Shown: positions 6,663 to 58,513, numbered from the stretch's first letter. The stretch is DNA of 64,000 bases from Gemmatimonadota bacterium (GCA_046484665.1 JAWOIN010000073.1:20918-84917); one strand, 5' to 3'. The notes: generated by a model from the sequence alone, not told the origin. Numbers and translations: made by a program.

Positions 6663-7312
<650 letters not shown>

Positions 7313-12645: not shown

Positions 12646-12803
12646 GAGCCTCCTCCCTCGGAGCTTCGGCCTGCGCTGCCCGGAATCGTGGTACACCCAG
12701 GGTTCCGGCCCGGGGCGGTAGCCGCAAGTCCAACGGGAGCGGGAGCCAGCGGCGCCGGGGCCGGATGTGGACGGGGCCGCCGGCGGACGGTTACACTTCC
12801 GAC

Positions 12804-13475: not shown

Positions 13476-13490
13476 TCGACCGCCGCCCGC

Positions 13491-15080: not shown

Positions 15081-15165
15081 CTCTGCTGGTTTCGGGTCAC
15101 GGCCGTGCGGAACCTCGTGCGGGCGACCCCCCGCGTCTCCGGCGGAGGGGAGGCGCGCGCCCGGC

Positions 15166-15731: not shown

Positions 15732-15947
15732 CCGTGTCGCCTGCTCGCTGGGCTCGGGACGGGCCCTCCCCGGCCGGGAGTGGACCGGCCACGACCCGCG
15801 GTGTCGCGGGGCCGCGGCGGTGGTGCAAGTTTCCTTCCGGCGGGGGCTCCGTCAACCTCCGCCGGGGCGCGCTTGCACGGACCGGCGGGGAGCGGGATCT
15901 TCCCGGCGGCGCGCGCCGTCCGTCACCCACGCAACGGGACCTCTCAC

Positions 15948-23747: not shown

Positions 23748-26700
23748 TTGAGGGCGCGGTCGGAGTCGCGGCCCGGCGCCGCGACCGCCCGAGGCCCGGC
23801 GTCGCTTCGGGCCCGCATCGCCGCGCTCGCGCTGGCGGGCGCCGCGCTCGCATGGTCGGCGTTCGCGACGCCGCTCGAGGCCCAGGAGCCGGGGGCGGCG
23901 GACGCCGCCCCGGCCGGGGCGGCGCCCCAGGAGGCTCCGGCGGAGCTCCGCCTCGGCTGGCACCGCCTCCCCTTCCCGTGGGCGATCGATCTCCCGCCGG
24001 GACCCCGGCCCGGAGAGCCCGGGAGGTTCTGGCCGTGGACGACGGGGAACGAGTGGCTGCGTGCCGAGCTCCGGTCCGTCGAGTCCGGGCTCGCCGCGCG
24101 TCGCGACACGATGTGGTGGGTCAGCCTGAGTCTGGACAAGCTCCCGCCGGGCTTCGACCGTCGGGGCTTTTACCGGCAGACCGCCCCCCCCGAAGAGGCG
24201 TTCGACCGCGAGGAGCGCGAGGACCGCCAGCGGATCGACCTCATCCCGGACGCGCTCAGCGGGATCGCCGACCTCGAGCTCGAGGTGGACGGCCAGGGGC
24301 AGCTGGGGTCGCAGTGGCAGACCTACAGTCCCTGCACGGTCGGCACCGGTCAGCAGTGCAACGCCGGCGCGGTGCCCGACATCGCCCCGGAGTTCCAGCT
24401 GCGGGCGGTCGCGCGCGGGACGATCTCGGAGCGGGTCCACGTCGACGTCGACTTCGATCAGACGCGCGAGTTCGACGCGACGAACAACCTGAACGTCTAC
24501 TACGAGGGCAAGCCGGACGAGATCCTGAGGTTCGTCGAGCTCGGCCAGGTGTCGCTCCCTCTCCCGTCCTCGCGCTACATCTCGCAGGCGATTCCCGCGG
24601 GAAACTTCGGCGTTCGCGGCGACGCGCGGCTGGGGCCGCTCGACCTCCGCGGCGTGTTCGCCGAGCAGAAGGGGAGCGTCGAGAACCGCCGCGTCACGCT
24701 CGAAGTGGGCGGGCCGGAGCAGGGGATCCTGCAGGACGTCGAGACCGTGCTCGACGACGCTTCGTACGCGAGCGGACAGTTCTTCTTCGTCGTCGACCCC
24801 CGGGAGCTCGCGGACTACCCGGTCATCGACGTGATCAACCTGCAGGGCCCGGAGGCGCCGCCGGCCCTGCGCCCGACCTCGTCCCTCAAGCTCTACCGCC
24901 ACGAGGTCTCGGTCGGGCAGCCGCAGAACGTAGCGTCCGGCGTGATCCAGGCGCGCGCGGTCGCCATCCGCCCGGCGGGCGCCGACCCGACCCTCCCGGA
25001 CAGCGTGGAGTTCAACGGGTTCTTCCGCCCGCTGATCGAGGGGGAGGACTTCATCGTCCACAGGAGCGGGCTATGGGTCGTCATCCGCAACCGGGTCCTG
25101 AAGGACGAGGCGCTGGCGGCGGCGTACGTCTCGGCCACCGGCGAGGAGGTCGGCGACTTCGACGCCGAGAACAAGTTCCGCGAGTACGCGAACGCCGGCA
25201 GCGGTGAGCTCCCGCGGCTCGTGCTTCTCAAGGATGCGGCGACGCACCGGCCGGGAGGCGTGACGTGGGAGCGGGAGATGCACCAGATCTACCGCATCTC
25301 GAGCTCCGACGACGTCGAGCAGGGCAGCGTGCGGCTCGTGATCTCCCAGGGGCCGGTGGAGTCCGGTCCGGTGGTCCGCGAGGCCGAGGGTCAGGGGTTC
25401 AGCTTCCTCGAGATCTTCGGGCTCGACGACTCGCCGCGCGACGACGAGCTCGACGCCGCCCGGATCTGGCGTCCCGCCGCTTCGGGCGAGTTCGCGGGGA
25501 CGAACGTGGTGAGCGGGAGCTACCTCGTGTTCCCGACGCTCGAACCGTTCAGGAGCCCGCCGCCGCTCAAGGACGCCCGCGTCCCGGCGCTCCAGGGAGA
25601 GCCGTTCCCGCTCGCAGAGGGCGACCGGAACGCGGCGATCTACGTCGAGGAGACGGACCAGATCCGCAACACGAGCTTCCTGTACCGGCTGAACCTCGCG
25701 TTCCGGGCCAGGAGCTCCGGCGCGGCCCGCTCCTTCTCGCTCGGCGCGATCGGGATCCGGCAGGGCAGCGAGCGGGTCCAGCTGAACGGGCGCGACCTGG
25801 TGCGCGGACAGGACTACGGCATCGACTACGAGATCGGGCAGCTCACGCTGCTTCGACCGGAGGAGCTGCTGGCCGGAGCCCAGAACCCGGACCTCCAGGT
25901 GCGGTTCGAGCAGAAGCCGATCTTCCAGCTCGCCCGGCGCAGCATCTTCGGCCTGACCGGGAGCTGGTCGCTAGGCGAGGTCGGCGCGATCGACTTCGTC
26001 GGGCTCAGCCAGCGGGAGGGGACGGTTCTCACACGCCCGGAAGTGGGGCTCGAGCCCGGCAGCGTGCAGCTCGGGGGCGTCACCGCCCGCCTGAACTTCG
26101 GCGCCGCCGCCCTCGACCGTCTGGCCAACGCCCTGCCCGGGATCGACTCGGACGTGAAGTCGCGGATCTCGTTCGACGGGGAGGTCGCCGGATCGAGCCC
26201 GACCACGAACCGGTCCGGCGCGACCTACGTGGACGACTTCGAGGCGAGTTCGCGGTTCCGGATCGGGCTCGGCGGCCGTTCCTGGCGGTTCGGGTCCCTC
26301 GCGTCGAGCCCCGAGCTCGACGGGGACCTGGACTTCCTGCCCGACGTCCCCGACGCGACGAACCGGCTCGAGGTGGCGTGGCAGTCCCAGTGGCTGGACG
26401 GCGCGACCGTGCAGGGTCCGCTGTTCGTGCGGCAGATCGATCCGGCCCTCAACGTGCTCAACGCCGGGACCACGGAGACGGTCCTCTGGGTCAGCCTCGA
26501 CGGCGCCCCGACCGCGGAGCAGGGGTGGGCCTCGATCACGAGCCCGCTGTCGGAGTCGGGAATCGACCTCACGAACTCGGAGTTCCTCGAGTTCTACGCG
26601 AGCACGCTGGGGGACCCGAGCGACCGGCTCGCGATCATCCTCGACATCGGGACCGTCTCCGAGGACGCCTTCGTCCTCGACTCGCTCGGATTTCCGGCGG

Positions 26701-29700
26701 GCCAGGGTGTGCTCGACCTGGAGGCGGACCCGCTCGTCGGCGTGTGGGGGAACCCGGACGACACGGGAATCTGGAACCAGGGCTGCACGGCGACGCCCGA
26801 CGCGACCGCGTACCCGCTGGGCGACCCGCGGGCGGTGTGCACGCGCGGCAACGGTCTCGAGGACACGGAGGACCTCAACCGCGACGGCTTCCTGAACCGG
26901 GACGAGCGCTTCGTCCGGTTCGTGATTCCCCTGAACGCTGCCTCGCGTTACCTCGTCCGTCCGACCGGGGGGGAGTTCCAGTTCGGCCTCTACCGCGTTC
27001 CCCTGCGGCTTCCCGACTACTTCGTGAACGTCAGCGAGGCGAGCTCCCAGCAGAACGTCCGGCACGTGCGGATCACCTTCACGACGGACAGGAGCGCGAC
27101 GGTCCTGCTCAGCCGGATGGAGTTCACCGGGTCGCCGTGGCTGAAGCGCGGCGGCAGCGGGAGCGTCCAGGGATCGATCGGCGAGGTCCCGGGCACGGCG
27201 GGCCAGGTCGCCGTGGGCCCGATCTCGACGACCGACGCGCGGTACGTGTCGCCCCCCGGGATCACGGACCAGCGGACGCAGGCCACCGACGACCTGGCCC
27301 TGTCTACGCAGCCGATCAACGAGCAGTCCCTGCGTCTCAGCTACACCGACATTCCGGCGGGAGAGAGGATCGAGGTGTTCCGGCGCTTCAGCGAGCGGCC
27401 GCGCGACTTCCTCACCTACCGGCGGATGCGCGCGTGGGCGGTCGCCGCCGAGGGCGAGTGGGGGGCGGGGTCGTCGCTCCGTTTCTACGTGCGCATGGGC
27501 TTCGACTCCCGGAACTTCTACCTTTACCGGATTCCGCTGGAGCTCGCCTCGGATCCGGTCGCCCGCGGCGACTGGCTCCCGGAGCGGCTGATCGACATCG
27601 GGCGCTGGATCCAGCTGCGCACGGAGGCCGAGAAGCGCTTTGCCGCGGGAGAGGCCGGGACCTCCGCGGACACGGCGTTCGTCCTCTGGGACGTGGACGT
27701 GTTCCCGGACGGCGACAGCACGCTCGCCATCGTGATCAACGACCGCTCGCGCGCCCCGAACCTGGCGGCGATCCGGGAGCTCGCGCTCGGCGTGGAGAAC
27801 ACGGGAGCTGTCGCGGTCGGGCCGGGCGAGGTCTGGATCGACGACCTCAGGCTCGACGAGGCGGCCGACCGCGGCGGCGGCGCGATTCGGGGCAGCCTCA
27901 GCGTCGACCTCTCGGACCTCGTGTCCGTCGAAGGCGCGTACAGCCGCCGGAACCCGTTCTACCGGCAGCTCGGCGAGAGCCCGCCCTACGAGGCCGCCAC
28001 GGACTATTCGACCCGGGTCGCCGCGAAGCTCGGGCGGTTCCTGCCCGGCTCGCCGGGGCTGTCGGTGCCGTTCGAGATGCAGTACCGCCGGTCGAGCAGC
28101 GATCCGTTCTTCCTCGCGCAGAGCGACGTGCTCGGCGAGGAGATCGGCGGGCTGCGCACCCCGACCAGCTCGCTCACCCGCATCAACCTCGGGCTGTTCA
28201 AGGAGACGCGCTCGGGGAACGCCTTCGCCAGGAGCACGATCGACGGGCTCAGACTCGGGTATTCGTGGCGGTCATCGGAGGCAGTCTCGACCCAGACGAA
28301 GGCCGCCGGAAGCGGATGGAACGCCGTGGCGAACTGGAGCCGCCCGGTGGCCGACAAGTCGTTCCCGCTCCTTCCGGGCTTCCTGCGGAGCGCGATCGAC
28401 GCCCTTCCGGAGTTCCTGTCCGGGAGCGAAGTCTTCTCCAACCTCCGGGACACGCGCTTCCGGTGGACGCCGCGCGACCTGCGGATGGGCGCCGGACTGT
28501 CCCGCTCCGACGACCGCCGCTTTCGCTACCAGTCGAGCGTCGCGCGCGGGGACGACGCGCTCATCGAGCCCGCCGTGGACCTCCAGCGCGTCCTCACGCC
28601 GAACGCGGGGATCCAGCTCCAGCCGTTTCCTTCCCTCGTGGCGGGCGTCTCGTGGAACTCGGCCCGCGACCTGGTCGATCCCTCCTTCCGCGCGTCCGGC
28701 GAGCGGGGCCGGGCGGTCCTCGCCGCCGAGTCGGGCAGCCTGCTCGGGATGGGCACGGGCTGGGAAACGAGCAGGAGCGTAAGGTCGAGCCTGAGCTGGC
28801 AGCCGAGCCTTTCGTCCTGGTTCGAGCCCCGTCTCACCCTGGTCACGGCCTACCAGAGCGCCCGGAACGTCTCGTACCTCGAGCAGGTGGAGGCGGACAC
28901 GACGCTGCTGCGCGACGTCGCGATGAACCGGGACCTCGGGCTCAACGTGGACGTCTTCCCCGTCGACCTCGCGAGCGTGCTGCGGATCCCGGAACGGCGC
29001 TCCGCCACCGGGTTCTGGTCGGGCTTCCGGGCCGTGTGGGACCGGATGCGACCGGTCCGGCTGGACTGGCAGCGCAACGTGAACGCCAGCTTCGACCGGC
29101 GCGACATCGACCCGTCGTTCGGCGACCAGCTGGTACTCGGCGGCTTCTCCGGCCTCCGCATCATCGGCGCCGACACGGCCTCGGCGGCGGGAGACGTCCG
29201 GCGATGGTCGGCCCGGGGCGGGTACCAGCTCCCGTTCGACCTCGACGCCGAGGTCAACTACGCGGTCGTCGAGAATCGGACCCTCACGGCGCGGAGCCTG
29301 CGCGCATCCGAGGACGTGGACTGGCCGTGGATCAGCCTCCGGTGGCGGGAAGTCCCGATTCCCGGGGCGCTCGACGGCCTGCTCCGGAGCGTGAGCCTGA
29401 CGGGAACCTGGCGCGACCGCGACCGCCTCGTCACCACCACGACGGGACAGGACCAGGGGTCCGGGACCCTCACCAGGACCCTGAGCGTGCTGTTCCTGTT
29501 CCGCAACGGCTTCAACCTGAACTACCAGCTCGACGACGCCCGCACGGACCGGTCCGACCAGACGGGACGGAGCGAGTCCGACCGCGTGTCGCACTCGATC
29601 CGGGCGACGGGGACGCTCCCGCCGCCGGACTTTCTCCGGTTCGTCAGGCAGCCCCTGCGGGTCTCGGCCGAATACTCGCTGAACGGGAACTTCGACTGCC

Positions 29701-29957
29701 GGGAGCTCGGGGGGCCGGGCTTCGCCAGCGGAATTCCCGGACTGGGCGACGACTGCACCGCCCACGTGGACCAGTCGACGCAGCGCGCGGCGCTCACCAT
29801 CGACTCGGACTTCCAGGGCTACACGCTGGGACTCCAGCTCAGCTGGTCGAACCGGGGCAGCGCCGTGGGGCGGCGCCAGACCTCGAACCAGTTCAACCTG
29901 AACATCTTCGGACGCTTCTTCCTCCGTTCCGACTCGAGGAATCCGACCGACCGCTGA
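23748..29957 (+). CDS. Giant (2069 aa) secreted/outer-membrane beta-rich protein, possibly SprA-family (T9SS translocon-like) cell-surface protein
   Basis: Uninterrupted 6.2-kb ORF with N-terminal signal peptide (ALALAGAALAWSAFATPLEAQ), pervasive alternating hydrophobic beta-strand patterns, C-terminal aromatic-rich strand; family call is from size/composition only. Confidence 0.5.
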   Translation: MRARSESRPGAATARGPASLRARIAALALAGAALAWSAFATPLEAQEPGAADAAPAGAAPQEAPAELRLGWHRLPFPWAIDLPPGPRPGEPGRFWPWTTGNEWLRAELRSVESGLAARRDTMWWVSLSLDKLPPGFDRRGFYRQTAPPEEAFDREEREDRQRIDLIPDALSGIADLELEVDGQGQLGSQWQTYSPCTVGTGQQCNAGAVPDIAPEFQLRAVARGTISERVHVDVDFDQTREFDATNNLNVYYEGKPDEILRFVELGQVSLPLPSSRYISQAIPAGNFGVRGDARLGPLDLRGVFAEQKGSVENRRVTLEVGGPEQGILQDVETVLDDASYASGQFFFVVDPRELADYPVIDVINLQGPEAPPALRPTSSLKLYRHEVSVGQPQNVASGVIQARAVAIRPAGADPTLPDSVEFNGFFRPLIEGEDFIVHRSGLWVVIRNRVLKDEALAAAYVSATGEEVGDFDAENKFREYANAGSGELPRLVLLKDAATHRPGGVTWEREMHQIYRISSSDDVEQGSVRLVISQGPVESGPVVREAEGQGFSFLEIFGLDDSPRDDELDAARIWRPAASGEFAGTNVVSGSYLVFPTLEPFRSPPPLKDARVPALQGEPFPLAEGDRNAAIYVEETDQIRNTSFLYRLNLAFRARSSGAARSFSLGAIGIRQGSERVQLNGRDLVRGQDYGIDYEIGQLTLLRPEELLAGAQNPDLQVRFEQKPIFQLARRSIFGLTGSWSLGEVGAIDFVGLSQREGTVLTRPEVGLEPGSVQLGGVTARLNFGAAALDRLANALPGIDSDVKSRISFDGEVAGSSPTTNRSGATYVDDFEASSRFRIGLGGRSWRFGSLASSPELDGDLDFLPDVPDATNRLEVAWQSQWLDGATVQGPLFVRQIDPALNVLNAGTTETVLWVSLDGAPTAEQGWASITSPLSESGIDLTNSEFLEFYASTLGDPSDRLAIILDIGTVSEDAFVLDSLGFPAGQGVLDLEADPLVGVWGNPDDTGIWNQGCTATPDATAYPLGDPRAVCTRGNGLEDTEDLNRDGFLNRDERFVRFVIPLNAASRYLVRPTGGEFQFGLYRVPLRLPDYFVNVSEASSQQNVRHVRITFTTDRSATVLLSRMEFTGSPWLKRGGSGSVQGSIGEVPGTAGQVAVGPISTTDARYVSPPGITDQRTQATDDLALSTQPINEQSLRLSYTDIPAGERIEVFRRFSERPRDFLTYRRMRAWAVAAEGEWGAGSSLRFYVRMGFDSRNFYLYRIPLELASDPVARGDWLPERLIDIGRWIQLRTEAEKRFAAGEAGTSADTAFVLWDVDVFPDGDSTLAIVINDRSRAPNLAAIRELALGVENTGAVAVGPGEVWIDDLRLDEAADRGGGAIRGSLSVDLSDLVSVEGAYSRRNPFYRQLGESPPYEAATDYSTRVAAKLGRFLPGSPGLSVPFEMQYRRSSSDPFFLAQSDVLGEEIGGLRTPTSSLTRINLGLFKETRSGNAFARSTIDGLRLGYSWRSSEAVSTQTKAAGSGWNAVANWSRPVADKSFPLLPGFLRSAIDALPEFLSGSEVFSNLRDTRFRWTPRDLRMGAGLSRSDDRRFRYQSSVARGDDALIEPAVDLQRVLTPNAGIQLQPFPSLVAGVSWNSARDLVDPSFRASGERGRAVLAAESGSLLGMGTGWETSRSVRSSLSWQPSLSSWFEPRLTLVTAYQSARNVSYLEQVEADTTLLRDVAMNRDLGLNVDVFPVDLASVLRIPERRSATGFWSGFRAVWDRMRPVRLDWQRNVNASFDRRDIDPSFGDQLVLGGFSGLRIIGADTASAAGDVRRWSARGGYQLPFDLDAEVNYAVVENRTLTARSLRASEDVDWPWISLRWREVPIPGALDGLLRSVSLTGTWRDRDRLVTTTTGQDQGSGTLTRTLSVLFLFRNGFNLNYQLDDARTDRSDQTGRSESDRVSHSIRATGTLPPPDFLRFVRQPLRVSAEYSLNGNFDCRELGGPGFASGIPGLGDDCTAHVDQSTQRAALTIDSDFQGYTLGLQLSWSNRGSAVGRRQTSNQFNLNIFGRFFLRSDSRNPTDR

Positions 29958-30664: not shown

Positions 30665-30865
30665 CCCGGGATCGCCGGCGGGGAGTTCGGAAGTGTCCTG
30701 ACGGCGCGGAGTTCCGCGTCTTTCGCCCCGACCGATGCACCGGGCACGCCTCTTGCCCCCCACACGGCTCGCGGGACCCGGGTCGCGCCGCCGGCGGCGC
30801 GAGCGGGCGCCCGGGAGGCCGGACCGGCCGGCACCGGGCGTGAGACAGCGGAAGAAACGGCAGCC

Positions 30866-35017: not shown

Positions 35018-35428
35018 ATGGCAGACTGCATCGGACTTCTCGGCCTCGACGAGGACGAGCTCGGATCGCGGCTCGGCGAGGCCACCTCGCGACGGGCGGC
35101 GGCCGGCGACGTCTGGCTCGTCTACGTATCGGACCGGCTCTCGCTCAGGGTCCGGTGCGCGCGGCGCGCCCCGGGAGAGCGCCCCCGCGTGGCCTCCTGG
35201 ACGGCGAGCTTCGCTCGCGGTCACGAGACCCTCTCGGACGCGGCGCGGTCGGTCGGCCTGTGGCCGCTGGCGGCGCCCGACCAGGAGGCCCGGACGGTCC
35301 GGGCTCCCCTCATCCGCCGGCCGCTGCCCTGTCCCGCCTCGGGCGATGTGCTCTCCCTGACCGCGACGGTCCGGAACGGGCGGATCACGCAGATCTCGGT
35401 GTTCGACGAGCCGCCCGACTGGATCTGA
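35018..35428 (+). CDS. Hypothetical protein (136 aa), weak call
   Basis: Protein-like composition where pilD would be expected; weak RBS; competing frame 34981..35496 is Arg-rich junk. Confidence 0.3.
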   Translation: MADCIGLLGLDEDELGSRLGEATSRRAAAGDVWLVYVSDRLSLRVRCARRAPGERPRVASWTASFARGHETLSDAARSVGLWPLAAPDQEARTVRAPLIRRPLPCPASGDVLSLTATVRNGRITQISVFDEPPDWI

Positions 35429-35587: not shown

Positions 35588-37423
35588 GTGCTGCGGACCC
35601 TGAAGTCCGAGAGAAGGCTCGCCGCGGCGCTCGAGCCGCGTCAGGTCCTGTACTGGATCTACGCGGCCCGCCTGCTGATCGCGCTCTCCGTGTTCGGGGC
35701 GGCGCTCGTCGTCTCCGACCTGCCGTCCGGCCTGTCCCTCGCCGCCGACGCGACGGCGGGACTCGCGGCGCTCGGGCTCGGCGCGGCGGCCGTCCTGACG
35801 CCGGTCGCGTACCTGATGAGCCACCGCAGGCGCCGCCTCCCGGGCCTGCCGTTCCTGCTCTCGCAGGCCTTGCTCGACATCTTCCTTGTGAACGCCGCGG
35901 TGTTCATCACCGGCGGCTACCAGAGCCCGTTCGTCTCGCTGTTCATCGCGCTCGCCGCGGCGTACGCGCTCGTGCTGCCGCTCTCTGTGGCGCTCCCCGT
36001 CACGCTGGCGACGGGCCTCGTCTACGTCCTCGCGAGCGTGATCGGGCAGCCGGCGGGCGCCAGCGTGCCGCTGCTCCTCGCGCAGGTCGCGATGTTCACG
36101 CTGGTGGCGATCGTCGCGAGCACGATCGGGGCCCGCCTGCGCGTCGTCCGGCAGCAGCTCCGGAGCATCGAGGGCGAGCTGCGGCGGCTCGAGATCGACA
36201 CCGCGGACGTGCTCCGGATCATCCCCACGGGCGTGGTGACCGTCGACGCCACGGGCCGCCTCGTATACATGAACCTCGCGGCAGCCGAGCTTCTCGGTCT
36301 CGACGTGGAGCAGGCGCTCGGGAAGGACGTTCGTCCGTTCCTCGAGCGGCTCTCCCACGACCTCGCGGCGGCCGTGGACGAGACCGTCGACCGACGCCGG
36401 CGGATCCGGAACCGGGAGCTCGAGATCCGATCGCCGTCGGCGGCCGCCCCGGCCGCGGACGGGACGCCCCCGGGGGGCGTCCAGGGGGTCGGACCGGGCG
36501 GGGTCGAGACGCCGGTGCCGGTCTCCCTGAGCTCCACCGTCCTGCAGGGATCCGGCGGCGACAGCTCCAGCGTGCTGCTGCTCCAGGACCTGCGGCCGGC
36601 GCGCCAGCTGGAGGACCTGCGCCTGCGGGCCGGGCGGCTGGAAGCGGTGGCGGAGCTCTCCGCGTCCCTCGCGCACGAGCTGAAGAACCCGCTCGCGTCG
36701 GTCCGGAGCGCCGCCGAGCAGCTCGCGAGGAGCGCGTTCGAGGACGCGGACGACCGCACGCTGAGCCGCCTCATCGTTCGCGAGAGCGACCGGCTCGACG
36801 GGATCCTGAAGGAGTTCAGCGACTTCGCGCGGGTCGACGTCGCGGCGCGCCGGCAGATCGACGTGGCGCGGCTGATCCGGGAGGTGCTCGAGACGGTGGG
36901 GAGCCACCCGGCGGCCGACGGGCGGGCCACCCTCGAGGCCGACGTCGCGGACGAGCTCGGCGGCCTGTGGGGCGATCCCGAGCTCCTCCACCGGACCCTG
37001 CTGAACCTGGTGCTCAACGCGGTGCAGGTCGGCGACCCGGCCCGTCCGGTCCGGATCCGCGTCGTGGCCGACGCCCTCCGGCCCGATCTCGTCCCGGGCG
37101 GGATCTCGATCGGCAACCCGGTGCGGATCCGGGTGATCGACGACGGTCCGGGCATCGAGGCCCAGGACCTCCCCCGGATCTTCGACCCCTTCTACACGCG
37201 GCGGTCCGGGGGGAGCGGGCTCGGGCTCGCGATCGCCCACCGGGCGGTCCAGGCCCACGGCGGAGCGCTGCTCGTCAGCTCCGTGCCGGGGCAGGGGGCG
37301 ACGTTCGCGATCGTGCTGCCGCGGCGCGTCGCTCGGAGCCGGGAACTGTTCGATGAGCGCATGGGATCGCCGGCGGGATCGGATCCCGCGGCCGCGGTCG
37401 CCTCGGAGGCGAGCGGAACCTGA
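35588..37423 (+). CDS. pilS: Sensor histidine kinase, PilS-like
   Basis: Six N-terminal TM helices, H-box SLAHELKNPLASV, HATPase_c N, G1 (DDGPGI) and G2 (GGSGLGLAI) boxes; followed by pilR. Confidence 0.8.
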   Translation: MLRTLKSERRLAAALEPRQVLYWIYAARLLIALSVFGAALVVSDLPSGLSLAADATAGLAALGLGAAAVLTPVAYLMSHRRRRLPGLPFLLSQALLDIFLVNAAVFITGGYQSPFVSLFIALAAAYALVLPLSVALPVTLATGLVYVLASVIGQPAGASVPLLLAQVAMFTLVAIVASTIGARLRVVRQQLRSIEGELRRLEIDTADVLRIIPTGVVTVDATGRLVYMNLAAAELLGLDVEQALGKDVRPFLERLSHDLAAAVDETVDRRRRIRNRELEIRSPSAAAPAADGTPPGGVQGVGPGGVETPVPVSLSSTVLQGSGGDSSSVLLLQDLRPARQLEDLRLRAGRLEAVAELSASLAHELKNPLASVRSAAEQLARSAFEDADDRTLSRLIVRESDRLDGILKEFSDFARVDVAARRQIDVARLIREVLETVGSHPAADGRATLEADVADELGGLWGDPELLHRTLLNLVLNAVQVGDPARPVRIRVVADALRPDLVPGGISIGNPVRIRVIDDGPGIEAQDLPRIFDPFYTRRSGGSGLGLAIAHRAVQAHGGALLVSSVPGQGATFAIVLPRRVARSRELFDERMGSPAGSDPAAAVASEASGT

Positions 37424-37466: not shown

Positions 37467-38831
37467 ATGCGAGACAAGCCCGTCCTCCTGCTGATCGACG
37501 ACGAGCAGCACCTGGTCGAGACCGTGACCGTGCTCCTCAAGCGCGAGGGCTTCGAGGTGATCGCGGAGTTCTCGGGCGCCGACGGACTGCGACGCTTCAA
37601 GGAGGAGCAGCCCGACATCGTGCTCTGCGACGTCCGGATGCCGAAGGTCAGCGGCATCGACGTGCTCGAGGAGATCCGGAAGAGCAGCCCCGAGACGCCC
37701 GTCGTGCTGATGACGGCGCAGGCCTCGCTCCAGTCGGCGATCCAGGCCGTGAACCTGGGAGCCACGCACTACGTCCAGAAGCCGTTCAAGAACGACGAGC
37801 TGATCGCGATCCTCAACCGCTCCCTCGACTGGGGCGCGCTCAAGAAGGAGAACGTCGGGCTCAAGCGCGAGCTGAAGAAGCAGCAGACCCTCAAGGTCGG
37901 CAAGCCGATCGGCGTCAGTCCCTCGTTCCGGGCCGCGCTCGACCTGGCGGAGAGCGTGGCGGACAGCGAGTCGACGATCCTGATCGGAGGCGAGAGCGGG
38001 ACCGGGAAGGAGGTGTTCGCGCGCTACATCCACGACCTGTCGCCTCGCTCGAGCCGCCGGTTCCTGTCGCTGAACTGCGGGGCGCTGCCGGAGGGGCTCC
38101 TCGAGTCGGAGCTGTTCGGCCACGTGAAGGGGAGCTTCACCGGGGCGGTCAAGGACAAGGAGGGGCTGTTCGTCGCCGCCTCCGGCGGGACCTTCTTCCT
38201 GGACGAGGTAGGGGAGATGGCTCCCTCCACGCAGGTGAAGCTGCTCCGCGTCCTCCAGCAGCGCGAGGTGATCCCGGTCGGGTCGACGGACCCGATCCCG
38301 GTGGACGTGCGCCTGATCGCGGCCACGAACCGGAACCTCGAGCGCGACATCGAGGAGGGCCGGTTCCGGCGCGACCTCTACTATCGGCTGAACGTGATCT
38401 CGCTCGAGCTCCCGCCCCTCAGGGAGCGGGCGGAGGACGTGCCGCTGCTCGCCCAGCACTTTCTGGCGCTCCAGACGGCGGACGGAGAGGAGCCGCGGAA
38501 GCTGTCCCCGAAGGCGCTCCAGGTGCTGCAGGAGTATCACTGGCCGGGCAACGTCCGGGAGCTGGAGAACGTGATCGAACGGGCGGTCGTCCTCACCGCC
38601 GGACCGACGATCAAGCCGGACGCCCTGCCGGAGCGGCTGCACGAGGCGCCGTCGGAGCCGCTCGTCCAGGACCGGCCGCCCGCCAACCCGGCGCTCGAGA
38701 TCATCGAGCGGGCCTACATCGAGCACGTGCTCCGGGCGGAGGGCGGCAACAAGACGAAGGCCGCGGAGGTCCTCGGGATCGATCCCAGCACGCTCTATCG
38801 CAAGATCAAGCGGTACGATCTGGAGGGTTGA
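37467..38831 (+). CDS. pilR: Sigma-54-dependent response regulator PilR (NtrC family)
   Basis: Receiver domain (LLIDDE...DVRMP), AAA+ sigma-54 interaction domain with GESGTGKE and GAFTGA-like GSFTGA, C-terminal Fis HTH. Confidence 0.9.
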   Translation: MRDKPVLLLIDDEQHLVETVTVLLKREGFEVIAEFSGADGLRRFKEEQPDIVLCDVRMPKVSGIDVLEEIRKSSPETPVVLMTAQASLQSAIQAVNLGATHYVQKPFKNDELIAILNRSLDWGALKKENVGLKRELKKQQTLKVGKPIGVSPSFRAALDLAESVADSESTILIGGESGTGKEVFARYIHDLSPRSSRRFLSLNCGALPEGLLESELFGHVKGSFTGAVKDKEGLFVAASGGTFFLDEVGEMAPSTQVKLLRVLQQREVIPVGSTDPIPVDVRLIAATNRNLERDIEEGRFRRDLYYRLNVISLELPPLRERAEDVPLLAQHFLALQTADGEEPRKLSPKALQVLQEYHWPGNVRELENVIERAVVLTAGPTIKPDALPERLHEAPSEPLVQDRPPANPALEIIERAYIEHVLRAEGGNKTKAAEVLGIDPSTLYRKIKRYDLEG

Positions 38832-38967: not shown

Positions 38968-38985
38968 TGGGGCACGAGGGTTGCT
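38968..38985 (+). promoter_or_regulatory. Sigma-54 (RpoN) promoter of pilA: GGGCACG-N4-TTGCT
   Basis: Matches -24/-12 consensus TGGCACG-N4-TTGCW at 6/7 + 4/4 positions; ~95 bp upstream of pilA ATG; downstream of pilSR. Confidence 0.6.
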
Positions 38986-39078: not shown

Positions 39079-39459
39079 ATGCTCCGCGACACCAAGGGCT
39101 TCACCCTGATCGAGCTGCTCATCGTGGTCGTGATCATCGGCATTCTCGCCGCGATCGCGATCCCGCAGTTCGCCAGCACCAAGGAGAAGGCGTTCGACGC
39201 CGCCGCGAAGAGCGACCTTCGCAATCTGATGGCCGCGCAGGAGGGCTACTACGCGGACAACCAGACCTACGCCGCCGCCGTCGCAGATTTCGGGACGGCG
39301 TTCGTCGAGAGCGAGCAGGTCACCGTGACGATCACCAGCGGCGACGCCATGAGCTACGAGGCGACCTCGAAGCACGCGGGAAGCTCGGAGACCTGGTGCG
39401 TGAACACGAACGAGGCCGCCGGCGACCCGGGCAAGATCGTCAAGAGCGCCGACTGCTGA
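39079..39459 (+). CDS. pilA: Type IV major pilin PilA
   Basis: Prepilin leader MLRDTKG|FTLIELLIVVVIIGILAAIAIPQF (class III signal, Glu+5), C-terminal disulfide loop C...C; strong GGGAGGGA RBS. Confidence 0.9.
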   Translation: MLRDTKGFTLIELLIVVVIIGILAAIAIPQFASTKEKAFDAAAKSDLRNLMAAQEGYYADNQTYAAAVADFGTAFVESEQVTVTITSGDAMSYEATSKHAGSSETWCVNTNEAAGDPGKIVKSADC

Positions 39460-39540
39460 GCGGACTCCGTCCGGCGGCTCGCGGCGGGATCGGCGGGAGC
39501 CCGACGTTCCGGATGGAGATGCTTCGAACGCGGTTCGATC

Positions 39541-39575
39541 GCGACACGGGGCGACCTTAGGCCGCCCCGTGTCGC
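39541..39575 (+). terminator. Strong GC hairpin downstream of pilA (intrinsic terminator / attenuator)
   Basis: gcgacacggggcg(acc) ttag (ggc)cgccccgtgtcgc, 13-16 bp stem, no U-tract. Confidence 0.5.
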
Positions 39576-39639
39576 ATCCGCGCATCCCGCCGCGGCCCGC
39601 ACGGCCGTTCCAGTCGGCCCTGGACCCGGAGCCCGAAGC

Positions 39640-41256
39640 GTGAAGCGGCTCGTGGCGGTGATGATCCCGGCTTGCCTGGCGGGCCTGGCGCTCGCCTGGA
39701 TCGTTCCCGGGCTGGACGATGTGGGGGTCACGGTCGACGAGCCCCAGTACTTCTTCTCCGTCGAGCGGATCCAGGAATGGTACGGTCTCCTCTCGACCGC
39801 CCCGCGATCCGCGCTCCGGGATTCGGCGATCGTAGCGGCGTGGGACCCGCCGGAGACACGCTACTGGAATCCGCACCCACCGGCGTACAAGCAGCTGATG
39901 GCTCTGACGGAAGCACTCGCGGGCGAGACGCTCGGACGAATCGCCGGCTACCGAGTCGCGCCGGCCGTGCAGTTCGCCCTGCTCGTCGCGGGGGTTTCGA
40001 TCACGGGTTCCGTCCTCGCGGGGCCGATCGCGGGAGCGGGTGCCGGACTCGCCCTGCTCGCGATGCCGAGGGTGGTCGGTCACGCGCACATCGCGGCGAC
40101 GGACATGCCGCTGACGCTGTTCTGGTTCGTTGCGGCGATCGGGCTCGGACTTCACATGCTCCGGGGTGGACGAGCGATCCTGCTCCTGGCGGCCGGGGCG
40201 CTCGGTTGCGCCATGGCGACGAAGTTCACGGGATGGCTGATTCCGGTCGCGGTCCTGCCGTGGTGTCTGATCGAGCGGAAGGGGAGGGGATTCCTGGCGT
40301 GGGTCGTGCTCGGGTTCCTGGTCGCGTGGGTTCTCACCCCGCCGGCCTGGACGCACCCGTTCGGGCAGATGGAGGCGCTGTTCCGCGAGAGCATCACGCG
40401 GGAGACCCACACGGAGGTCAGCACGCGGTATTTCGGCCTCACATACGGTTACATCGTTCCGTGGCATCACCCGTTCGTCATGACGCTGATCACGGTGCCG
40501 GTCGGAGTGCTGGCGTTGGCGACGGCAGGCCTCTTCGGCTTCGTCCGCGACAAGCGCGCCGCCGGGCGGGAAGACGAGGCGACGACGCCGAGCGCCTCTG
40601 TGGCGGGGCTCGCCGTGCTCCAGATCGTCTTCTTCCTGGCCCTCGTCGCTCTGCCGCACTCTCCGAACCACGACGGTGTCAGGCAGTGGCTCCCGATGTT
40701 CCCCTTCGTGGCTCTCCTCGCGGGTCTTGGCTTCTCCCGACTCGCTCGTCTGGCGGACCTGCGCCGGGCAGGAAGGGGACGGGCGCCGCTCGTCCTGGCC
40801 CTTGGAGCGGTGTTCCTTCTCCCCGGAATCTGGCAGACGGCGCGGGTGGCGCCATTCTACCTATCCTTCTACAACGGGCTGATCGGGGGACTTCCGGGTG
40901 CACGGGACCGCGGGATGGAGATCAGCTACTGGAACGACGCGATCACTCCGACCTTCCTGAGGGAGGCCGAGCGAGCGCTTCCCCCGGGGAGCGTGGTGGT
41001 CGGGCATCCGAGCCCGGCCTACTTCCGGGAGCTTCAAGCACTCGGGCTCGTCCGCGGCGACCTGCGGTTCGAGGCTGTCTGGCCTCCCCGGTACCTGCTG
41101 CTGATCGGGCGGATGAGCTACATGCCCGACCCCCTCCTCCCTGACATCTACTCGCAGATCAGGCCCGTCGTGCGGACCGAGCTGGATGACGTCACCTTGG
41201 CCGGGCTCTACGTTCTCGAAGGAGAGCCGAAGACGGGGAGCATGGGCGGGCCCTGA
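39640..41256 (+). CDS. GT-C fold membrane glycosyltransferase (ArnT/PMT-like, GT83/GT39 family); candidate pilin glycosyltransferase
   Basis: 538 aa, ~11 TM helices, first periplasmic loop motif VDEPQYFF (DEx(R/Q)Y of ArnT/PMT family); immediately downstream of pilA. Confidence 0.7.
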   Translation: MKRLVAVMIPACLAGLALAWIVPGLDDVGVTVDEPQYFFSVERIQEWYGLLSTAPRSALRDSAIVAAWDPPETRYWNPHPPAYKQLMALTEALAGETLGRIAGYRVAPAVQFALLVAGVSITGSVLAGPIAGAGAGLALLAMPRVVGHAHIAATDMPLTLFWFVAAIGLGLHMLRGGRAILLLAAGALGCAMATKFTGWLIPVAVLPWCLIERKGRGFLAWVVLGFLVAWVLTPPAWTHPFGQMEALFRESITRETHTEVSTRYFGLTYGYIVPWHHPFVMTLITVPVGVLALATAGLFGFVRDKRAAGREDEATTPSASVAGLAVLQIVFFLALVALPHSPNHDGVRQWLPMFPFVALLAGLGFSRLARLADLRRAGRGRAPLVLALGAVFLLPGIWQTARVAPFYLSFYNGLIGGLPGARDRGMEISYWNDAITPTFLREAERALPPGSVVVGHPSPAYFRELQALGLVRGDLRFEAVWPPRYLLLIGRMSYMPDPLLPDIYSQIRPVVRTELDDVTLAGLYVLEGEPKTGSMGGP

Positions 41257-41267
41257 CAGGAGCGGCG

Positions 41268-42251
41268 ATGAAGACCCTCGACCTGGTCGTCCCGGTCAAC
41301 AACGAGGAAGAGATCTTGCCGGACCTCCACCGCCGCCTGGAGCAGGTCTGTGGATCGCTTCCTTACGACTGGCGGATCATCTATGTCGACGATGGAAGCG
41401 ATGATGCCTCCCCCGCGCTGCTCACCGGCCTCGCCGACGGGAACGGACGCGTCGGTGTGGTCACGCTCTCGCGCAACTTCGGACAACAGCCCGCGATCGC
41501 CGCGGGTCTCGCGGTCGCGGACGCCGACGCGGTCGTCCTGATGGACGGCGACCTGCAGGATCCTCCCGAGTTGATTCCAGAGCTCTGCCGTCGTTGGGAG
41601 TCCGGGTGCGACGTGGTTTACGCCGTGAAGCAGAAGCGGAAGGAGTCGGTCCTCAAGCGCGGTCTGTTCGCCGGGTTCTACGCCTTGCTGAGACGGCTGA
41701 GCTCGGTGGAGATGCCGGCCAACGCGGGCAACTTCTCGCTGATGGACCGCACGGTGGTCGAGGCCGTGAACGCGATGCCGGAATACCACAGGTACGTCAG
41801 CGGGCTTCGAGCCTACGCCGGTGGTCGTCAGACGGGGGTGGTGTACGAGCGCGCCGCCCGGCACGCGGGCGAGCCCCGGCAATCTCCCCGCAAGCTGTTC
41901 CGAATGGCGTTCGACGCGCTCTTCGCCTTCTCCGAGGTCCCGCTCAGGCTCGCCACGATCGCGGGGTTCTCCGTGTCGGGGGTCGCCTTCATCGTGCTGC
42001 TCCGGGTCCTCTGGAAGAAGCTCGTCACCGGCGAGGCGATCCTCGGCTGGGCCTCCGTGATGACGTCGGTCCTCTTTCTCGGCGGGATCCAGCTCATCGC
42101 GATCGGCATCATCGGCGAGTACGTGGGCCGGATCTACAACGAGTCGAAGCGTCGGCCGGCCTGGATCGTGGCATCGACCCGGAACCTGGACGGGGGCGCT
42201 GGAGCGAGCCCGGCCCGACAAGTCCGACAGACAGATCCGGTGGACCTTTGA
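41268..42251 (+). CDS. GT2 polyprenyl-phosphate glycosyltransferase (ArnC/GtrB/Ppm1-DPM1 family)
   Basis: VVPVNNEEE...YVDDGSDD...DGDLQDPPE (DXD) catalytic motifs, two C-terminal TM helices. Confidence 0.85.
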   Translation: MKTLDLVVPVNNEEEILPDLHRRLEQVCGSLPYDWRIIYVDDGSDDASPALLTGLADGNGRVGVVTLSRNFGQQPAIAAGLAVADADAVVLMDGDLQDPPELIPELCRRWESGCDVVYAVKQKRKESVLKRGLFAGFYALLRRLSSVEMPANAGNFSLMDRTVVEAVNAMPEYHRYVSGLRAYAGGRQTGVVYERAARHAGEPRQSPRKLFRMAFDALFAFSEVPLRLATIAGFSVSGVAFIVLLRVLWKKLVTGEAILGWASVMTSVLFLGGIQLIAIGIIGEYVGRIYNESKRRPAWIVASTRNLDGGAGASPARQVRQTDPVDL

Positions 42252-42317: not shown

Positions 42318-42749
42318 GTGCGTGCTTCGGGCTTCACCCTCGTCGAGCTTCTGATCGCGACGGTCATCGCGGCGACGCTCGTGTCGATCGGGGTCGGGTC
42401 GCTCTCCGGCGCGCGGGAACGGGCGGCTCTGAACGGGGCGGCCGACGCGGTGACGCGGCAGCTCGCGCTCGGCCGGGCCGTCGCGGTGGCCCGGAGGGAG
42501 ACCGTCCGGCTGACCCGGCGCGACCGGGAGCTCGCGCTGCTCGACTCCCGCGGCGCCGTTCTCTCCGTCCTCGCGCTCGGCCGGGGCGACGACCTGCCGC
42601 TCGACTCGGTCGTGGTCCGACCCTCGTCCATCCGCTTCAATGCGCGCGGGCACGCCGGAGCCGGGAGCATCTACCTCTGGCGTGGGGGCCGCGGGGTCCG
42701 CCTCGTGACGAACTTCCTCGGTCGGGTCCGCCGCGAGCCGGTGCCGTGA
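42318..42749 (+). CDS. Type IV pilus minor pilin (FimT/GspH-like pseudopilin)
   Basis: GTG start; prepilin motif MRASG|FTLVELLIATVIAA. Confidence 0.7.
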   Translation: MRASGFTLVELLIATVIAATLVSIGVGSLSGARERAALNGAADAVTRQLALGRAVAVARRETVRLTRRDRELALLDSRGAVLSVLALGRGDDLPLDSVVVRPSSIRFNARGHAGAGSIYLWRGGRGVRLVTNFLGRVRREPVP

Positions 42750-43201
42750 CGATGCGCCTGCGCCGCAACGGGTCCGGCGTTCTGCACGACCCGCGGAGGG
42801 GATTCCGGTCCCGCGCCGGAACCGCGTGGCGGCGCGGTCCCGGAAGCGGCGCGGAGTCCGGGCGCGGAAGCGCGCTCATTGAGATTCTCATCTCCTTGTC
42901 GATTCTTACGATAGGGGTCTTCGCCATCGTCGGTATGCTCGGGTCGGCCCGGAGGAGCGCCGAGGCTGCGGCCGGGAGTGCCGCCGCGGCGCTGGCGGCA
43001 CAGCAGGTGCTCGAAACGAGCCTGGCGGGTCGCGGCCCTGGTGCTCCGTACGCGGGGGACGTGCCCGTGGGCGTGCGCCGGGTCCGCGTCACGCTGGTGG
43101 CGGAGCACGCCGCGAGCGGGCTGATCCGACTCCGGGCGCACGCGGTGGATCGGGGATCGCGGCGGGCGTGGGACGTGGAGACGCTGCGGGCCGGTCCCTG
43201 A
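42746..43201 (+). CDS. Type IV pilus minor pilin, PilV-like, with unusually long (~40 aa) leader
   Basis: Prepilin-type motif G|SALIEILISLSILTIGVFAIVG; no alternative in-frame start nearer the cleavage site. Confidence 0.55.
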   Translation: MTMRLRRNGSGVLHDPRRGFRSRAGTAWRRGPGSGAESGRGSALIEILISLSILTIGVFAIVGMLGSARRSAEAAAGSAAAALAAQQVLETSLAGRGPGAPYAGDVPVGVRRVRVTLVAEHAASGLIRLRAHAVDRGSRRAWDVETLRAGP

Positions 43202-43382
43202 GCGGCGTTGCGGGACGCGCGCCGACCGGCTCTCTTCCAGGGATGTCGTCCGGAATGCGGGCCGCTCGTCCCGGGCCGGGGAGAGGCATCGGGGGACGTT
43301 TGACAGCTTTCGGGAGCGCGCCTATCATGTGGCTCACCCGCCACACGCAGCCCAACTTCAACCGGCCGAGCGGCTTGCCGTC

Positions 43383-58505: not shown

Positions 58506-58513
58506 GGGATTCC

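Follow-up and report, generated by a model that had tools for sequence, protein, structure and literature searches.

Why do two genes for membrane glycosyltransferases stand between the major pilin gene pilA and the minor pilin genes of a Gemmatimonadota bacterium? An initial annotation of the 64,000-nucleotide stretch of DNA that we analysed (the window) read the pair as an inserted module for pilin glycosylation. Our analysis suggests that the two enzymes most likely couple a sugar to a lipid carrier and then transfer it to a pilus protein on the extracytoplasmic side of the membrane.

Gene order and regulation around pilA

On the plus strand, pilA is followed by the gene for a GT-C protein (GTCa), a GT2 gene, the minor pilin genes and pilMNOPQ (Table 1), and each of the elements that the initial annotation had placed here (pilA, GT-C, GT2 and minor pilins) was found in its place. 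The gap between pilA and the GT-C gene is 180 nt and contains a hairpin, and the two glycosyltransferase genes are only 11 nt apart and co-directional with the minor pilin gene behind them. Exact matches to the -24/-12 box were found at just two places in the window, one 5' of pilA and the other 5' of pilB.

Table 1. Features of the pilA region, in window coordinates
Feature	Position	Strand	Remarks
pilS-like kinase gene	35588-37423		With pilR, likely regulator of pilA
pilR-type sigma-54 activator gene	37467-38831	+	Pfam Response_reg, Sigma54_activat, HTH_8; identical gene call in the 97% relative
Sigma-54 type -24/-12 promoter box GGCACGAGGGTTGC	38971-38984	+	About 95 nt 5' of pilA
pilA, major type IVa pilin, 126 aa	39079-39459	+	Proposed acceptor; PF07963, TIGR02532
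13-bp GC-rich hairpin (GCGACACGGGGCG...CGCCCCGTGTCGC)	39541-39575	+	3' of pilA; putative terminator/attenuator
GTCa, GT-C fold membrane glycosyltransferase, 538 aa	39640-41256	+	Proposed transferase from polyprenyl-P-sugar to acceptor
GT2 polyprenyl-phosphate glycosyltransferase, GtrB/ArnC/PgfS-like, 327 aa	41268-42251	+	Proposed maker of the lipid-P-monosaccharide donor
fimT/gspH-like minor pilin gene	42318-42749	+	PF07963, PF12019; 66 nt 3' of GT2
pilV-like minor pilin gene	42752-43201	+	Abuts the fimT-like gene; TIGR02523 E 1e-7; called in the 97% relative

The GT-C and GT2 genes are genuine genes and not chance ORFs, because their GC3 is 0.85-0.86, because there are 171 homologues (best E = 0), and because their pN/pS ratios against a 97%-identical relative are 0.29 for GT-C and 0.03 for GT2. 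The word 'inserted' did not survive. We ruled out a foreign insertion, as the GC content at 39-42 kb (0.67-0.685) resembles that of the flanks (0.68-0.72) and other members of the phylum all have genes at this site; instead of a locus-specific insertion, the pair is the core to which a larger island has here been reduced.

A GT-C enzyme and a polyprenyl-phosphate glycosyltransferase

GTCa has 11 predicted transmembrane helices, a cytoplasmic N terminus and a periplasmic C-terminal alpha/beta domain, and its multi-spanning fold places it in the GT-C superfamily (GT-C_A class). The initial annotation had predicted a GT-C protein of about 11 helices directly after pilA with a periplasmic-loop motif VDEPQYFF, and had allowed that homology searches might move it out of the GT-C families; by fold it stays there. 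The acidic first-loop site typical of such enzymes is present as D33, E34 and P35, each of them invariant or kept in no less than 90% of 24 homologues; the three lie right after TM1 (helix 2-24), where a loop helix begins (34-53). Judged by position rather than by residue-level superposition, D33 and E34 may be equivalent to the catalytic Asp of ArnT and PMT enzymes.

The best structural match of GTCa is ArnT, a lipid-modifying enzyme, and Pmt4 and Pmt1/2 also match strongly. Curated families gave less: no NCBIfam family was matched even at E 0.01, the ArnT model included, and PDB sequence searches with either the single sequence or a 24-sequence profile returned no match. Pfam assignments expected at the outset held for GT2 (PF00535, E 5.5e-25) but not for GTCa, which scored 25.7 bits on PF13231 (PMT_2) against a gathering threshold of 26.1, falling 0.4 bits short, and had no Pfam match to PF02366, MIR or PMT_4TMC, the latter two being domains of eukaryotic-type PMTs; some of its orthologues do pass PF13231 and PF02366. 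With these three models absent and PMT_2 below threshold, bona fide membership of the GT39 PMT family was ruled out. Since GTCa exceeds the threshold of no curated family and its best structural match is ArnT, the type of acceptor cannot be read from its family. Its donor would be a polyprenyl-phosphate sugar, an indirect reading from the adjacent and co-conserved GT2 gene. The 15 amino acid differences between GTCa and its counterpart in the 97% relative show no concentration in periplasmic parts but are dispersed, most of them within transmembrane helices.

GT2 consists of a cytoplasmic GT-A domain, juxtamembrane helices and two C-terminal transmembrane helices, which together with a DxD motif are the hallmarks of polyprenyl-phosphate glycosyltransferases. 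Residues 4-304 align without large gaps to residues 28-329 of Synechocystis GtrB (5ekp; E 7e-72), the nearest relative of solved structure, which uses UDP-glucose, and the alignment to ArnC is likewise end to end (E 4e-45). This bears out the earlier description of a GT2 enzyme with DXD motifs and two C-terminal helices: the motif DGDLQDPPE, which includes D93-G-D95 as well as Q97 and D98, is kept in 47 of 47 orthologues. Among NCBIfam models the best match was PgfS (1.4e-66, 225 bits against a cut-off of 500), followed by ArnC (3.5e-49, 167.5 bits against 529), and because GT2 lies below both equivalog cut-offs we assign it no sugar specificity. Two positions depart from GtrB: that of R122 is Lys in 47/47 orthologues, and that of D157 is Asn in 39/47 and Leu, Val or Ile in the others. 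In GtrB, the 'universally conserved' R122 and D157 are needed as judged by mutagenesis, and D157N abolishes activity (PMC4728340), although D157 has also been reported to be non-conserved among membrane GT-A enzymes, with D94 favoured as the base (PMC12698845). The family carrying these substitutions is under strong purifying selection. The substitutions argue against orthology with GtrB and not against activity of GT2.

The island and its pilins across Gemmatimonadota

The arrangement recurs in about 40 related uncultured Gemmatimonadota species, from which we conclude that the link to pili is real. We counted a locus as informative if it had enough flanking DNA, and in all 43 such loci the pair sits between pilA (or pilS-pilR-pilA) and a fimT-like minor pilin gene, the downstream edge of the island in relatives, or pilM; seven further loci, on contigs of at most 5.7 kb, hold island genes alone. 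The initial annotation had considered that relatives might carry the pair as a lipid A or cell-wall unit away from pil genes, which is not what these loci have. The position in the pil operon is kept over deep divergence, with PilM identity down to 45-48%, and in one related locus (L033) genes overlap by 4 nt. Such clustering supports a link to pili but would fit more than one acceptor. Near homologues from Planctomycetota and Chloroflexota (approximately 30% identity) we found no prepilin ORF or pilus-assembly gene, so the linkage belongs to this clade and not to GT-C genes generally. Matches to sigma-54 activators were seen near several of these outside homologues.

GTCa is present in every island, whereas other GT-C paralogues come and go, and GT2 accompanies it in all loci that reach downstream of GTCa, with one exception (L035). 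The window contains this near-universal core of GT-C and GT2 only. In relatives the island is usually larger, encoding as many as four or five GT-C-like proteins and, in some cases, a methyltransferase; their islands also include a 509-aa multi-transmembrane protein, at most a possible further GT-C (hhalign against the GTCa profile, E 0.085), and a YfhO-like protein, for which the window has no gene. Pilin type co-varies with island content. Pilins beside full islands have no Cys and approximately 30% Ser/Thr in the C-terminal half, whereas those beside reduced islands, the window included, have a disulfide loop; all tabulated pilins have H-x-x-S-S as a common motif.

This co-variation bears on whether the pair serves the pilin in particular. 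A general PMT-like system that O-glycosylates many exported proteins, such as PilQ, minor pilins and envelope proteins, with the pilin as one or a lesser substrate, would account for the Pmt4 and Pmt1/2 matches, for the minor pilin genes directly downstream of the pair and for PgfS as the closest curated GT2 model, PgfS being part of a streptococcal system with several surface proteins as its targets (10.1101/2022.10.10.511621). We nevertheless consider it unlikely, given that one would not expect the genes of a housekeeping system to keep to a single site, flanked by pilA and the minor pilins, in all species, or their number and kind to follow the pilin type, and that the MIR and PMT_4TMC domains are missing from the Pfam results.

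It is similarly improbable that the pair modifies a non-protein glycoconjugate co-regulated with pili (lipid A, LPS core, O-antigen or exopolysaccharide), as ArnC/ArnT, GtrB/GtrV or CsbB/YfhO do. GtrB and ArnC are the best matches of GT2, relatives encode the YfhO-like protein, and several GT-Cs per island are reminiscent of polysaccharide building, but neither enzyme reaches an Arn model, the window lacks arnA/B/D/E/F, O-antigen and EPS genes, and the invariant pil-operon position, the co-variation with pilin type and the pil-unlinked homologues beyond the phylum all speak against it. GTCa shows neither the curated model match nor the arn operon context of an ArnT (GT83) enzyme, and the lipid A/Arn pathway itself was ruled out, with no ArnT or ArnC equivalog match, no arn genes and an invariant pil context. 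We give very little credence to a non-catalytic role, in which the proteins would be TfpY-like chaperones or adaptors for pilus assembly with enzyme motifs as relics: certain pilin accessory proteins are indeed not glycosyltransferases (PMC11841053) and GT2 has no counterpart of the GtrB D157 acid, but D-E-P, DxD and many polar residues of the loops do not vary among 24-47 orthologues, the pN/pS ratios given above indicate constraint, and keeping a donor synthase beside a transferase makes sense only with chemistry.

The proposed acceptor is the pilin itself. PilA carries a class III signal and N-methylation motif (PF07963 E 2.4e-9; TIGR02532), its N terminus is similar to that of Myxococcus PilA, and orthologues occupy the equivalent position in relatives. 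Its C-terminal half is Ser/Thr-rich and ends in a Cys107...Cys126 loop, preceded by the Ser/Thr stretch that the initial annotation had pointed out (VTVTITSGDAMSYEATSKHAGSSETWC...C), and no other protein of the locus diverges as much at nonsynonymous sites (pN 0.031 against the 97% relative). The region between pilA and the GT-C gene folds strongly (-110 kcal/mol, z -3.8). Relatives have a hairpin of 13-18 bp 3' of the island-proximal pilA, with stem sequences that vary by locus; here and in most relatives it has no U-tract, and a short T run follows the stem in a few loci. A consensus scan of the plus strand between pilA and GT-C found no intrinsic terminators and no sigma-70 promoters. In P. 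aeruginosa, a pilin-accessory cassette comprises a major pilin gene, a terminator-like hairpin between it and the next gene, and one or more co-directional accessory genes that vary with pilin type (PMC11841053), and the locus agrees with this definition in layout, hairpin and pilin-type co-variation. By analogy, the hairpin may be a terminator or attenuator and may thereby reduce expression of the accessory genes downstream. We regard it as probable that the locus is a pilin-accessory O-glycosylation cassette of a 'lipid-phosphate monosaccharide plus GT-C' type. The first proposal of pilin glycosylation is thus supported by the GT-C fold, the pil linkage, the co-variation, the hairpin and the lack of Arn matches, with the pilin as the presumed acceptor.

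A proposed route and related systems

In the pathway that we propose, pilA would be driven by PilSR from its sigma-54 promoter, and the hairpin would let only a fraction of transcripts reach both enzyme genes and the minor pilins. GT2 would make a lipid-P-monosaccharide, which a flippase encoded elsewhere would take to the periplasmic face. GTCa, with its invariant Asp-Glu at the start of the first periplasmic loop, would then transfer the sugar to Ser/Thr of PilA while the pilin is in the inner membrane, ahead of its entry into the fibre; the minor pilins may be further acceptors. The additional GT-C-like enzymes and methyltransferase of relatives would probably extend or decorate the glycan, leaving the window with the priming core only. 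The dedicated flippase of three-component periplasmic glycosylation systems is missing from the locus. As had been noticed at the outset, no flippase ORF lies between GT-C and GT2, for which the 11-nt gap leaves no room, and there is none beside the two genes either; no GtrA-like flippase was found within the 64 kb, where multi-transmembrane ORFs of at least 85 aa encode only known proteins, and none was recognised in the islands of relatives, which include the unassigned 509-aa protein.

The closest precedent is TfpW of P. aeruginosa group IV strains (Pa5196/PA7), likewise a GT-C membrane enzyme encoded immediately 3' of pilA. With a polyprenyl-phosphate monosaccharide as donor, TfpW acts in the periplasm, where it places an O-linked sugar on Ser/Thr of the major pilin (10.1101/2020.04.19.049825). 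As compared by description, TfpW has 646 aa, a C-terminal TPR and a DDx motif, whereas GTCa has 538 aa, a DEP motif and no Pfam TPR; its donor, lipid-P-D-Araf, comes from an unlinked PRPP-transferase/DprE1/E2 pathway, whereas here a GtrB-type GT2 is part of the cassette. No Pseudomonas protein was among the 120 listed of the 171 homologues.

Pairs of a GtrB-type enzyme and a GT-C are a well-known class (PMC11127046, PMC5836110). The GtrA/GtrB/GtrV systems of Shigella and Salmonella phages (Mann and Whitfield class) follow the same scheme, from GT2 Und-P-sugar to extracytoplasmic GT-C, but act on O-antigen and not on protein, and have in their operon the GtrA flippase that is absent here. CsbB/YfhO and GtlA/GtlB, also GtrB-like GT2 and GT-C pairs, glycosylate lipoteichoic acid in Bacillus and Listeria (PMC5836110), which makes the acceptor a teichoic acid and the host a monoderm, unlike the pilin proposed here. 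In the Pgf system of Streptococcus mutans (PgfS, PgfM1, PgfE and PgfM2), a GtrB-like GT2 and GT-C-type proteins O-glycosylate surface adhesins (PMC5856776); those targets are sortase-anchored adhesins rather than pilins, and the window locus has no epimerase gene. The same logic of a polyprenyl-P-monosaccharide synthase with a GT-C acting on exported Ser/Thr is found in actinobacterial Ppm1/Pmt and eukaryotic Dpm1/PMT (GT39), whose GT-C shares the loop 1 DE motif with GTCa, but whose genes have no pilus linkage in those organisms. ArnC/ArnT stand in an LPS context, whereas the context here is pili, and the remaining arn genes were not found. Type IV pilins or related filament subunits are also glycosylated by PglL/TfpO/PilO, cyanobacterial Ogt (GT41) and archaeal AglB. 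PglL and TfpO belong to a different family and hand over a glycan already assembled on Und-PP, Ogt works in the cytoplasm and falls in family GT41 (PMC9306852), and AglB is a GT-C like GTCa but N-glycosylates from a lipid-linked oligosaccharide.

The claim that this arrangement had not been described stands in part: a GT-C gene beside pilA is known from TfpW, but we found no report of a GtrB-type GT2 with a GT-C inside a type IV pilus operon. Nor did the literature yield anything on Gemmatimonadota pili or their glycosylation, or anything relevant on GtrB with pilins, GT39/ArnT-like genes with pilA, or Thermus PilA4. The chemistry would be a variant of that of known systems, and as the underlying chemistry is already known the surprise is limited.

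More broadly, we see an even chance that the locus belongs to a phylum-wide, modular glycan-assembly island at a fixed type IV pilus site, with one GtrB-type synthase, one to five GT-C-like enzymes and, in some species, a methyltransferase, building O-glycans on the pilin in the periplasm and co-evolving in content with pilin type; the window would then hold the smallest natural form, in which a Ser/Thr glycosyltransferase for priming is joined by its donor synthase, a two-gene PMT-like system of protein O-glycosylation dedicated to the pilin in a diderm host. As the simplest member, this two-gene version would be a natural start for reconstitution, with about 40 species-level loci now at hand for comparative work, and it may be of use in glyco-engineering, to equip a small secreted protein with a defined monosaccharide on Ser/Thr. 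If the proposal is true, stepwise periplasmic glycosylation, supplied by a GtrB-type Und-P-sugar synthase whose gene lies within the pilus operon, would be a route of pilin glycosylation distinct from en-bloc transfer by PglL/TfpO, arabinosylation by TfpW and cytoplasmic modification by Ogt, in a phylum that is widespread and poorly studied. The island looks like a hot spot of variation that shifts along with the pilin, as would be expected if pilus-binding phages or predators drive the change.

Enzymes encoded in the pilus locus

The window, from a high-GC genome (~70%), carries a complete type IVa pilus locus, which runs on the + strand throughout in the order comEA, pilB, pilT, pilC, a conserved 136-aa open reading frame, a pilS-like kinase, the sigma-54 activator pilR, pilA, a 538-aa membrane protein (the GT-C), a 327-aa GT2 enzyme, fimT/gspH-like and pilV-like minor pilins and pilMNOPQ, then aroC, aroK and topA. 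A metagenomic contig whose GT-C is 97% identical (the 97% relative) shares this gene order, and all homologues of the 538-aa protein with a named source, among the matches listed, come from Gemmatimonadota metagenome-assembled genomes. pilA and both enzyme genes lie where the initial annotation had placed them. A Pfam search with the 136-aa frame gave no match; its gene call recurs in the 97% relative, with four synonymous and no nonsynonymous differences, so the frame is probably a genuine, conserved gene of the pilus locus.

Features of the window and of homologous loci (L numbers) in other genomes
Locus	Feature	Position	Strand	Remark
Window	CcmF with redoxin	2079-4661	-	cytochrome c maturation
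Window	Heavy-metal P-type ATPase	10372-13116	-	
Window	SprA-like protein	23748-29957	+	2069 aa; type IX secretion component; directly upstream of comEA and pilus genes
Window	Sigma-54 box	30743-30756	+	~110 nt upstream of pilB
Window	136-aa ORF	35018-35428	+	between pilC and pilS
Window	Sigma-54 box	38971-38984	+	~95 nt upstream of pilA, downstream of pilSR
Window	pilA	39079-39459	+	
Window	Perfect 13-bp GC hairpin	39541-39575	+	core of pilA-GT-C spacer fold
Window	GT-C	39640-41256	+	538 aa
Window	GT2	41268-42251	+	327 aa
Window	Sigma-70-like promoter	43300-43328	+	TTGACA, 17 nt, TATCAT; 11/12 matches; just upstream of pilM
Window	pilM start	43383	+	as called in 97% relative
Window	Second sigma-54 activator	58103-60130	+	675 aa
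L003	Full island (example)	5863-16024		
L033	Full island (example)	5812-12566		
L013	Methyltransferase	7220-8101		
L026	Methyltransferase	14027-14914		
L037	Methyltransferase	9081-9962		
L078	Methyltransferase	2676-3488		
L030	Four tandem pilA-like matches	1928-4705		upstream of island
L013	Second pilin gene with Cys	14326		downstream of island
L019	Second pilin gene with Cys	10143		downstream of island
L022	Second pilin gene with Cys	16483		downstream of island
L036-L040	Second pilin gene with Cys	~14570		downstream of island

The proposed ArnC/GtrB-like character of the GT2 was borne out: residues 4-304, including the juxtamembrane and C-terminal TM helices, align with GtrB of Synechocystis (E 7e-72) and ArnC (E 4e-45), and the DXD-containing motif D93-G-D95-L-Q97-D98-P-P-E is kept in all 47 orthologues examined. 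Two GtrB residues required by mutagenesis, R122 and D157 (PMC4728340), are replaced. The first is lysine in the window enzyme (K121) and in 47/47 orthologues; the second is asparagine (N155), as in 39 of the 47, with a hydrophobic residue in the remainder. GtrB loses its activity on mutation D157N (PMC4728340). According to a later time-resolved cryo-EM study, which favoured the first aspartate of the DxD motif as the base, membrane GT-A enzymes do not conserve D157 (PMC12698845); we therefore read the substitutions as suggesting non-orthology to GtrB rather than inactivity. Scores on the PgfS and ArnC equivalog models were far under the cut-offs, so they name no sugar.

The GT-C assignment of the 538-aa protein is borderline from sequence alone: the Pfam search came close with PMT_2 at 25.7 bits, just short of the 26.1 gathering score, and NCBIfam and PDB sequence searches returned no match, in the PDB even with a 24-sequence profile. 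Combining the model's helices, hydrophobicity and the positive-inside rule, we predict 11 TM helices, matching the initial annotation, with the N-terminus inside, a periplasmic C-terminal alpha/beta domain of ~125 residues and cytoplasmic turns KR (N-terminus), ERKGRG, RDKRAAGR and RRAGRGR. Every invariant polar residue of the family falls in a predicted periplasmic loop. The invariant residues are D33-E34-P35 directly after TM1, N77-P-H-P-P81, R144/H148/H150/D155, K195, R254 and H344-D-G-V-R348; the VDEPQYFF noted initially is the local form of a family motif, WDEPxY. Codon statistics of both enzyme genes are gene-like (GC3 0.85-0.86), and against the 97% relative the GT-C has a pN/pS of 0.29 and the GT2 one of 0.03.

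A variable island between pilA and the minor pilins

Scanning one genome per species yielded 75 loci, onto which the window proteins were mapped by tblastn; 50 belong to the Gemmatimonadota clade, where identity to the window GT-C is 34-53%. In all 43 of these with usable flanks, pilS-pilR-pilA lies upstream of the GT-C orthologue, and a fimT-like pilin with pilMNOPQ lies downstream; the seven remaining loci are contigs of ≤5.7 kb with island genes only. This linkage is kept in a deep branch whose PilM is only 45-48% identical to that of the window. By its gene neighbourhood, the pair is not the pil-unlinked envelope-modification unit that would have refuted the initial annotation. Homologues in Planctomycetota and Chloroflexota (~30% identity) had neither a prepilin ORF nor a pilus-assembly gene nearby, and several lie near sigma-54 activator matches. 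In eight Planctomycetota loci (L047, L065, L066, L069, L070 and L072-L074), distant GT-C homologues form tandem arrays of 3-5 paralogues, near which no pilin genes were found.

The same site holds more genes in most relatives than in the window. Their islands contain a YfhO-like protein of 800 aa, a second protein of PMT_2/PMT type, 28-38% identical to the window GT-C (GTCb), the orthologue of that GT-C (GTCa) and the GT2; a multi-TM protein of 509 aa and unassigned family and another PMT_2 protein (GTCd) are often present too. In the islands of L001-L050, PMT_2/YfhO-type GT-C proteins number up to four, beside the 509-aa protein; the window has one GT-C only. Several islands also embed a class I SAM methyltransferase (~270-295 aa, Methyltransf_11/23/25), which hints at methylated sugars. 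GTCa is the only gene shared by every island, and GT2 accompanies it in every locus reaching downstream of GTCa except L035, where none was found within 17 kb. Among the Gemmatimonadota loci GT2 directly follows GTCa, except in L035 and in L030, where a further GT-C gene intervenes. The window and its two 97% relatives carry this core of GTCa and GT2 alone. As larger islands occupy the same site in relatives, the module, initially described as an insertion at this locus, is on comparative grounds not genome-specific and represents a variable island in its minimal form. Since every GT-C but GTCa is missing from some islands, we infer that GTCa would attach the first sugar to the acceptor, leaving the other GT-Cs to extend or branch the glycan.

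Pilin type and expression of the island

PilA carries the N-terminal motif of prepilins (PF07963, TIGR02532) and, as first reported, a Ser/Thr-rich stretch ahead of its C-terminal disulfide loop (Cys107...Cys126). Three observations, on pilin type, on sequence divergence and on the hairpin after pilA, speak for a link to the major pilin itself rather than to pili at large. Beside full islands the pilins are free of Cys, with 15-22 Ser/Thr among the last 60-62 residues (for example, FTTSTGI...SASHSSSGN), whereas those beside reduced islands (the window and the L036-L040 branch, in which GTCb is absent) have a C-terminal disulfide loop and fewer Ser/Thr. An H-x-x-S-S motif is common to the pilins tabulated. 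PilA also shows the highest nonsynonymous divergence of the locus against the 97% relative (pN 0.031, pN/pS 0.89), with nine changes, all within residues 66-116 and four touching Ser/Thr, while the assembly machinery is almost invariant; as the numbers are small, this third observation is only suggestive.

Second pilin genes with Cys occur downstream of some islands. Their C-termini in L037, L039 and L040 (...SSETWC / ...SLETFC ...C) are closer to window PilA than are the Cys-free pilins upstream of full islands (L002-L034), and on this resemblance the window pilin may derive from the downstream type. In L030, three of the four tandem pilA-like matches are full-length pilin ORFs, nearly identical to one another and each with a hairpin behind it; the array is a candidate pilin-variation locus.

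Strong secondary structure is predicted for the spacer between pilA and GT-C (MFE -110 kcal/mol, z -3.8). In almost every relative a hairpin of 13-18 bp lies ~40 nt past the stop codon of the pilA next to the island, with a stem that varies from locus to locus; the secondary pilin genes downstream have none. For Pseudomonas pilin-accessory cassettes, a terminator between the pilin gene and the accessory genes is described as characteristic (PMC11841053). The only two exact sigma-54 -24/-12 boxes (GGCAC-N5-TTGC) in 64 kb precede pilB and pilA, which suggests that both pilus operons may depend on the PilSR/sigma-54 system. As the stretch between pilA and GT-C yielded no promoter-like site, the enzyme genes probably owe their expression to transcripts that read through the hairpin, as do the minor pilins (GT-C and GT2 are 11 nt apart, GT2 and minor pilins 66 nt). 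The sigma-70-like site is a possible separate promoter for pilMNOPQ.

Proposed mechanism, alternatives and precedents

We consider it reasonably probable that the pair glycosylates PilA in three steps. GT2 would load one sugar onto undecaprenyl phosphate on the cytoplasmic side, an unlinked flippase would bring the lipid-phosphate-linked sugar to the periplasm, and D33/E34 of the GT-C would move it to Ser/Thr of membrane-embedded PilA before assembly. The predicted sites are in the Ser/Thr-rich C-terminal stretch, possibly at the H-x-x-S-S motif. The main weaknesses of the pilin reading are that no flippase gene was found in the cassette or the 64-kb window, that the best structural match of the GT-C is ArnT, a lipid-modifying enzyme, and that the acceptor is inferred. 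We regard a broader PMT-like protein glycosylation system as unlikely beside the constant pil flanks and the covariation with pilin type. Equally improbable in our view is modification of a non-protein glycoconjugate merely co-regulated with pili, against which the same covariation speaks. A non-catalytic accessory role, for which the missing GtrB D157 acid might speak, is very improbable alongside the invariant DXD motif and periplasmic residues. Pilin glycosylation, the initial interpretation, is supported as far as sequence analysis reaches.

The closest precedent is TfpW of Pseudomonas aeruginosa group IV strains, a GT-C encoded directly after pilA that O-glycosylates pilin from a polyprenyl-phosphate pentofuranose donor (10.1101/2020.04.19.049825; PMC11127046). 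It differs from the window GT-C in size, in its loop motif (DDx rather than DEP) and in a TPR domain, which Pfam did not find in the window GT-C, and its donor pathway is unlinked and unrelated, whereas the window cassette has its own GtrB-type synthase. The pairing of a GT2 with a GT-C follows the logic of three-component systems (GtrABV, CsbB/YfhO, GtlAB), Pgf and Ppm1/Pmt. PglL/TfpO, which transfer en bloc to pilin, are different enzymes, as is the cytoplasmic Ogt of cyanobacterial pilin glycosylation (PMC9306852). A search outside subscription journals, which is not proof, found no paper on such an arrangement or on glycosylated Gemmatimonadota pili; the initial view that the arrangement is undescribed stands to that extent, with TfpW as a close precedent against it. 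The arrangement varies a known kind of system and introduces no new principle. The interest of the locus is raised by its phylum-wide conservation, by modular variation tied to pilin type and by the window holding its simplest form.
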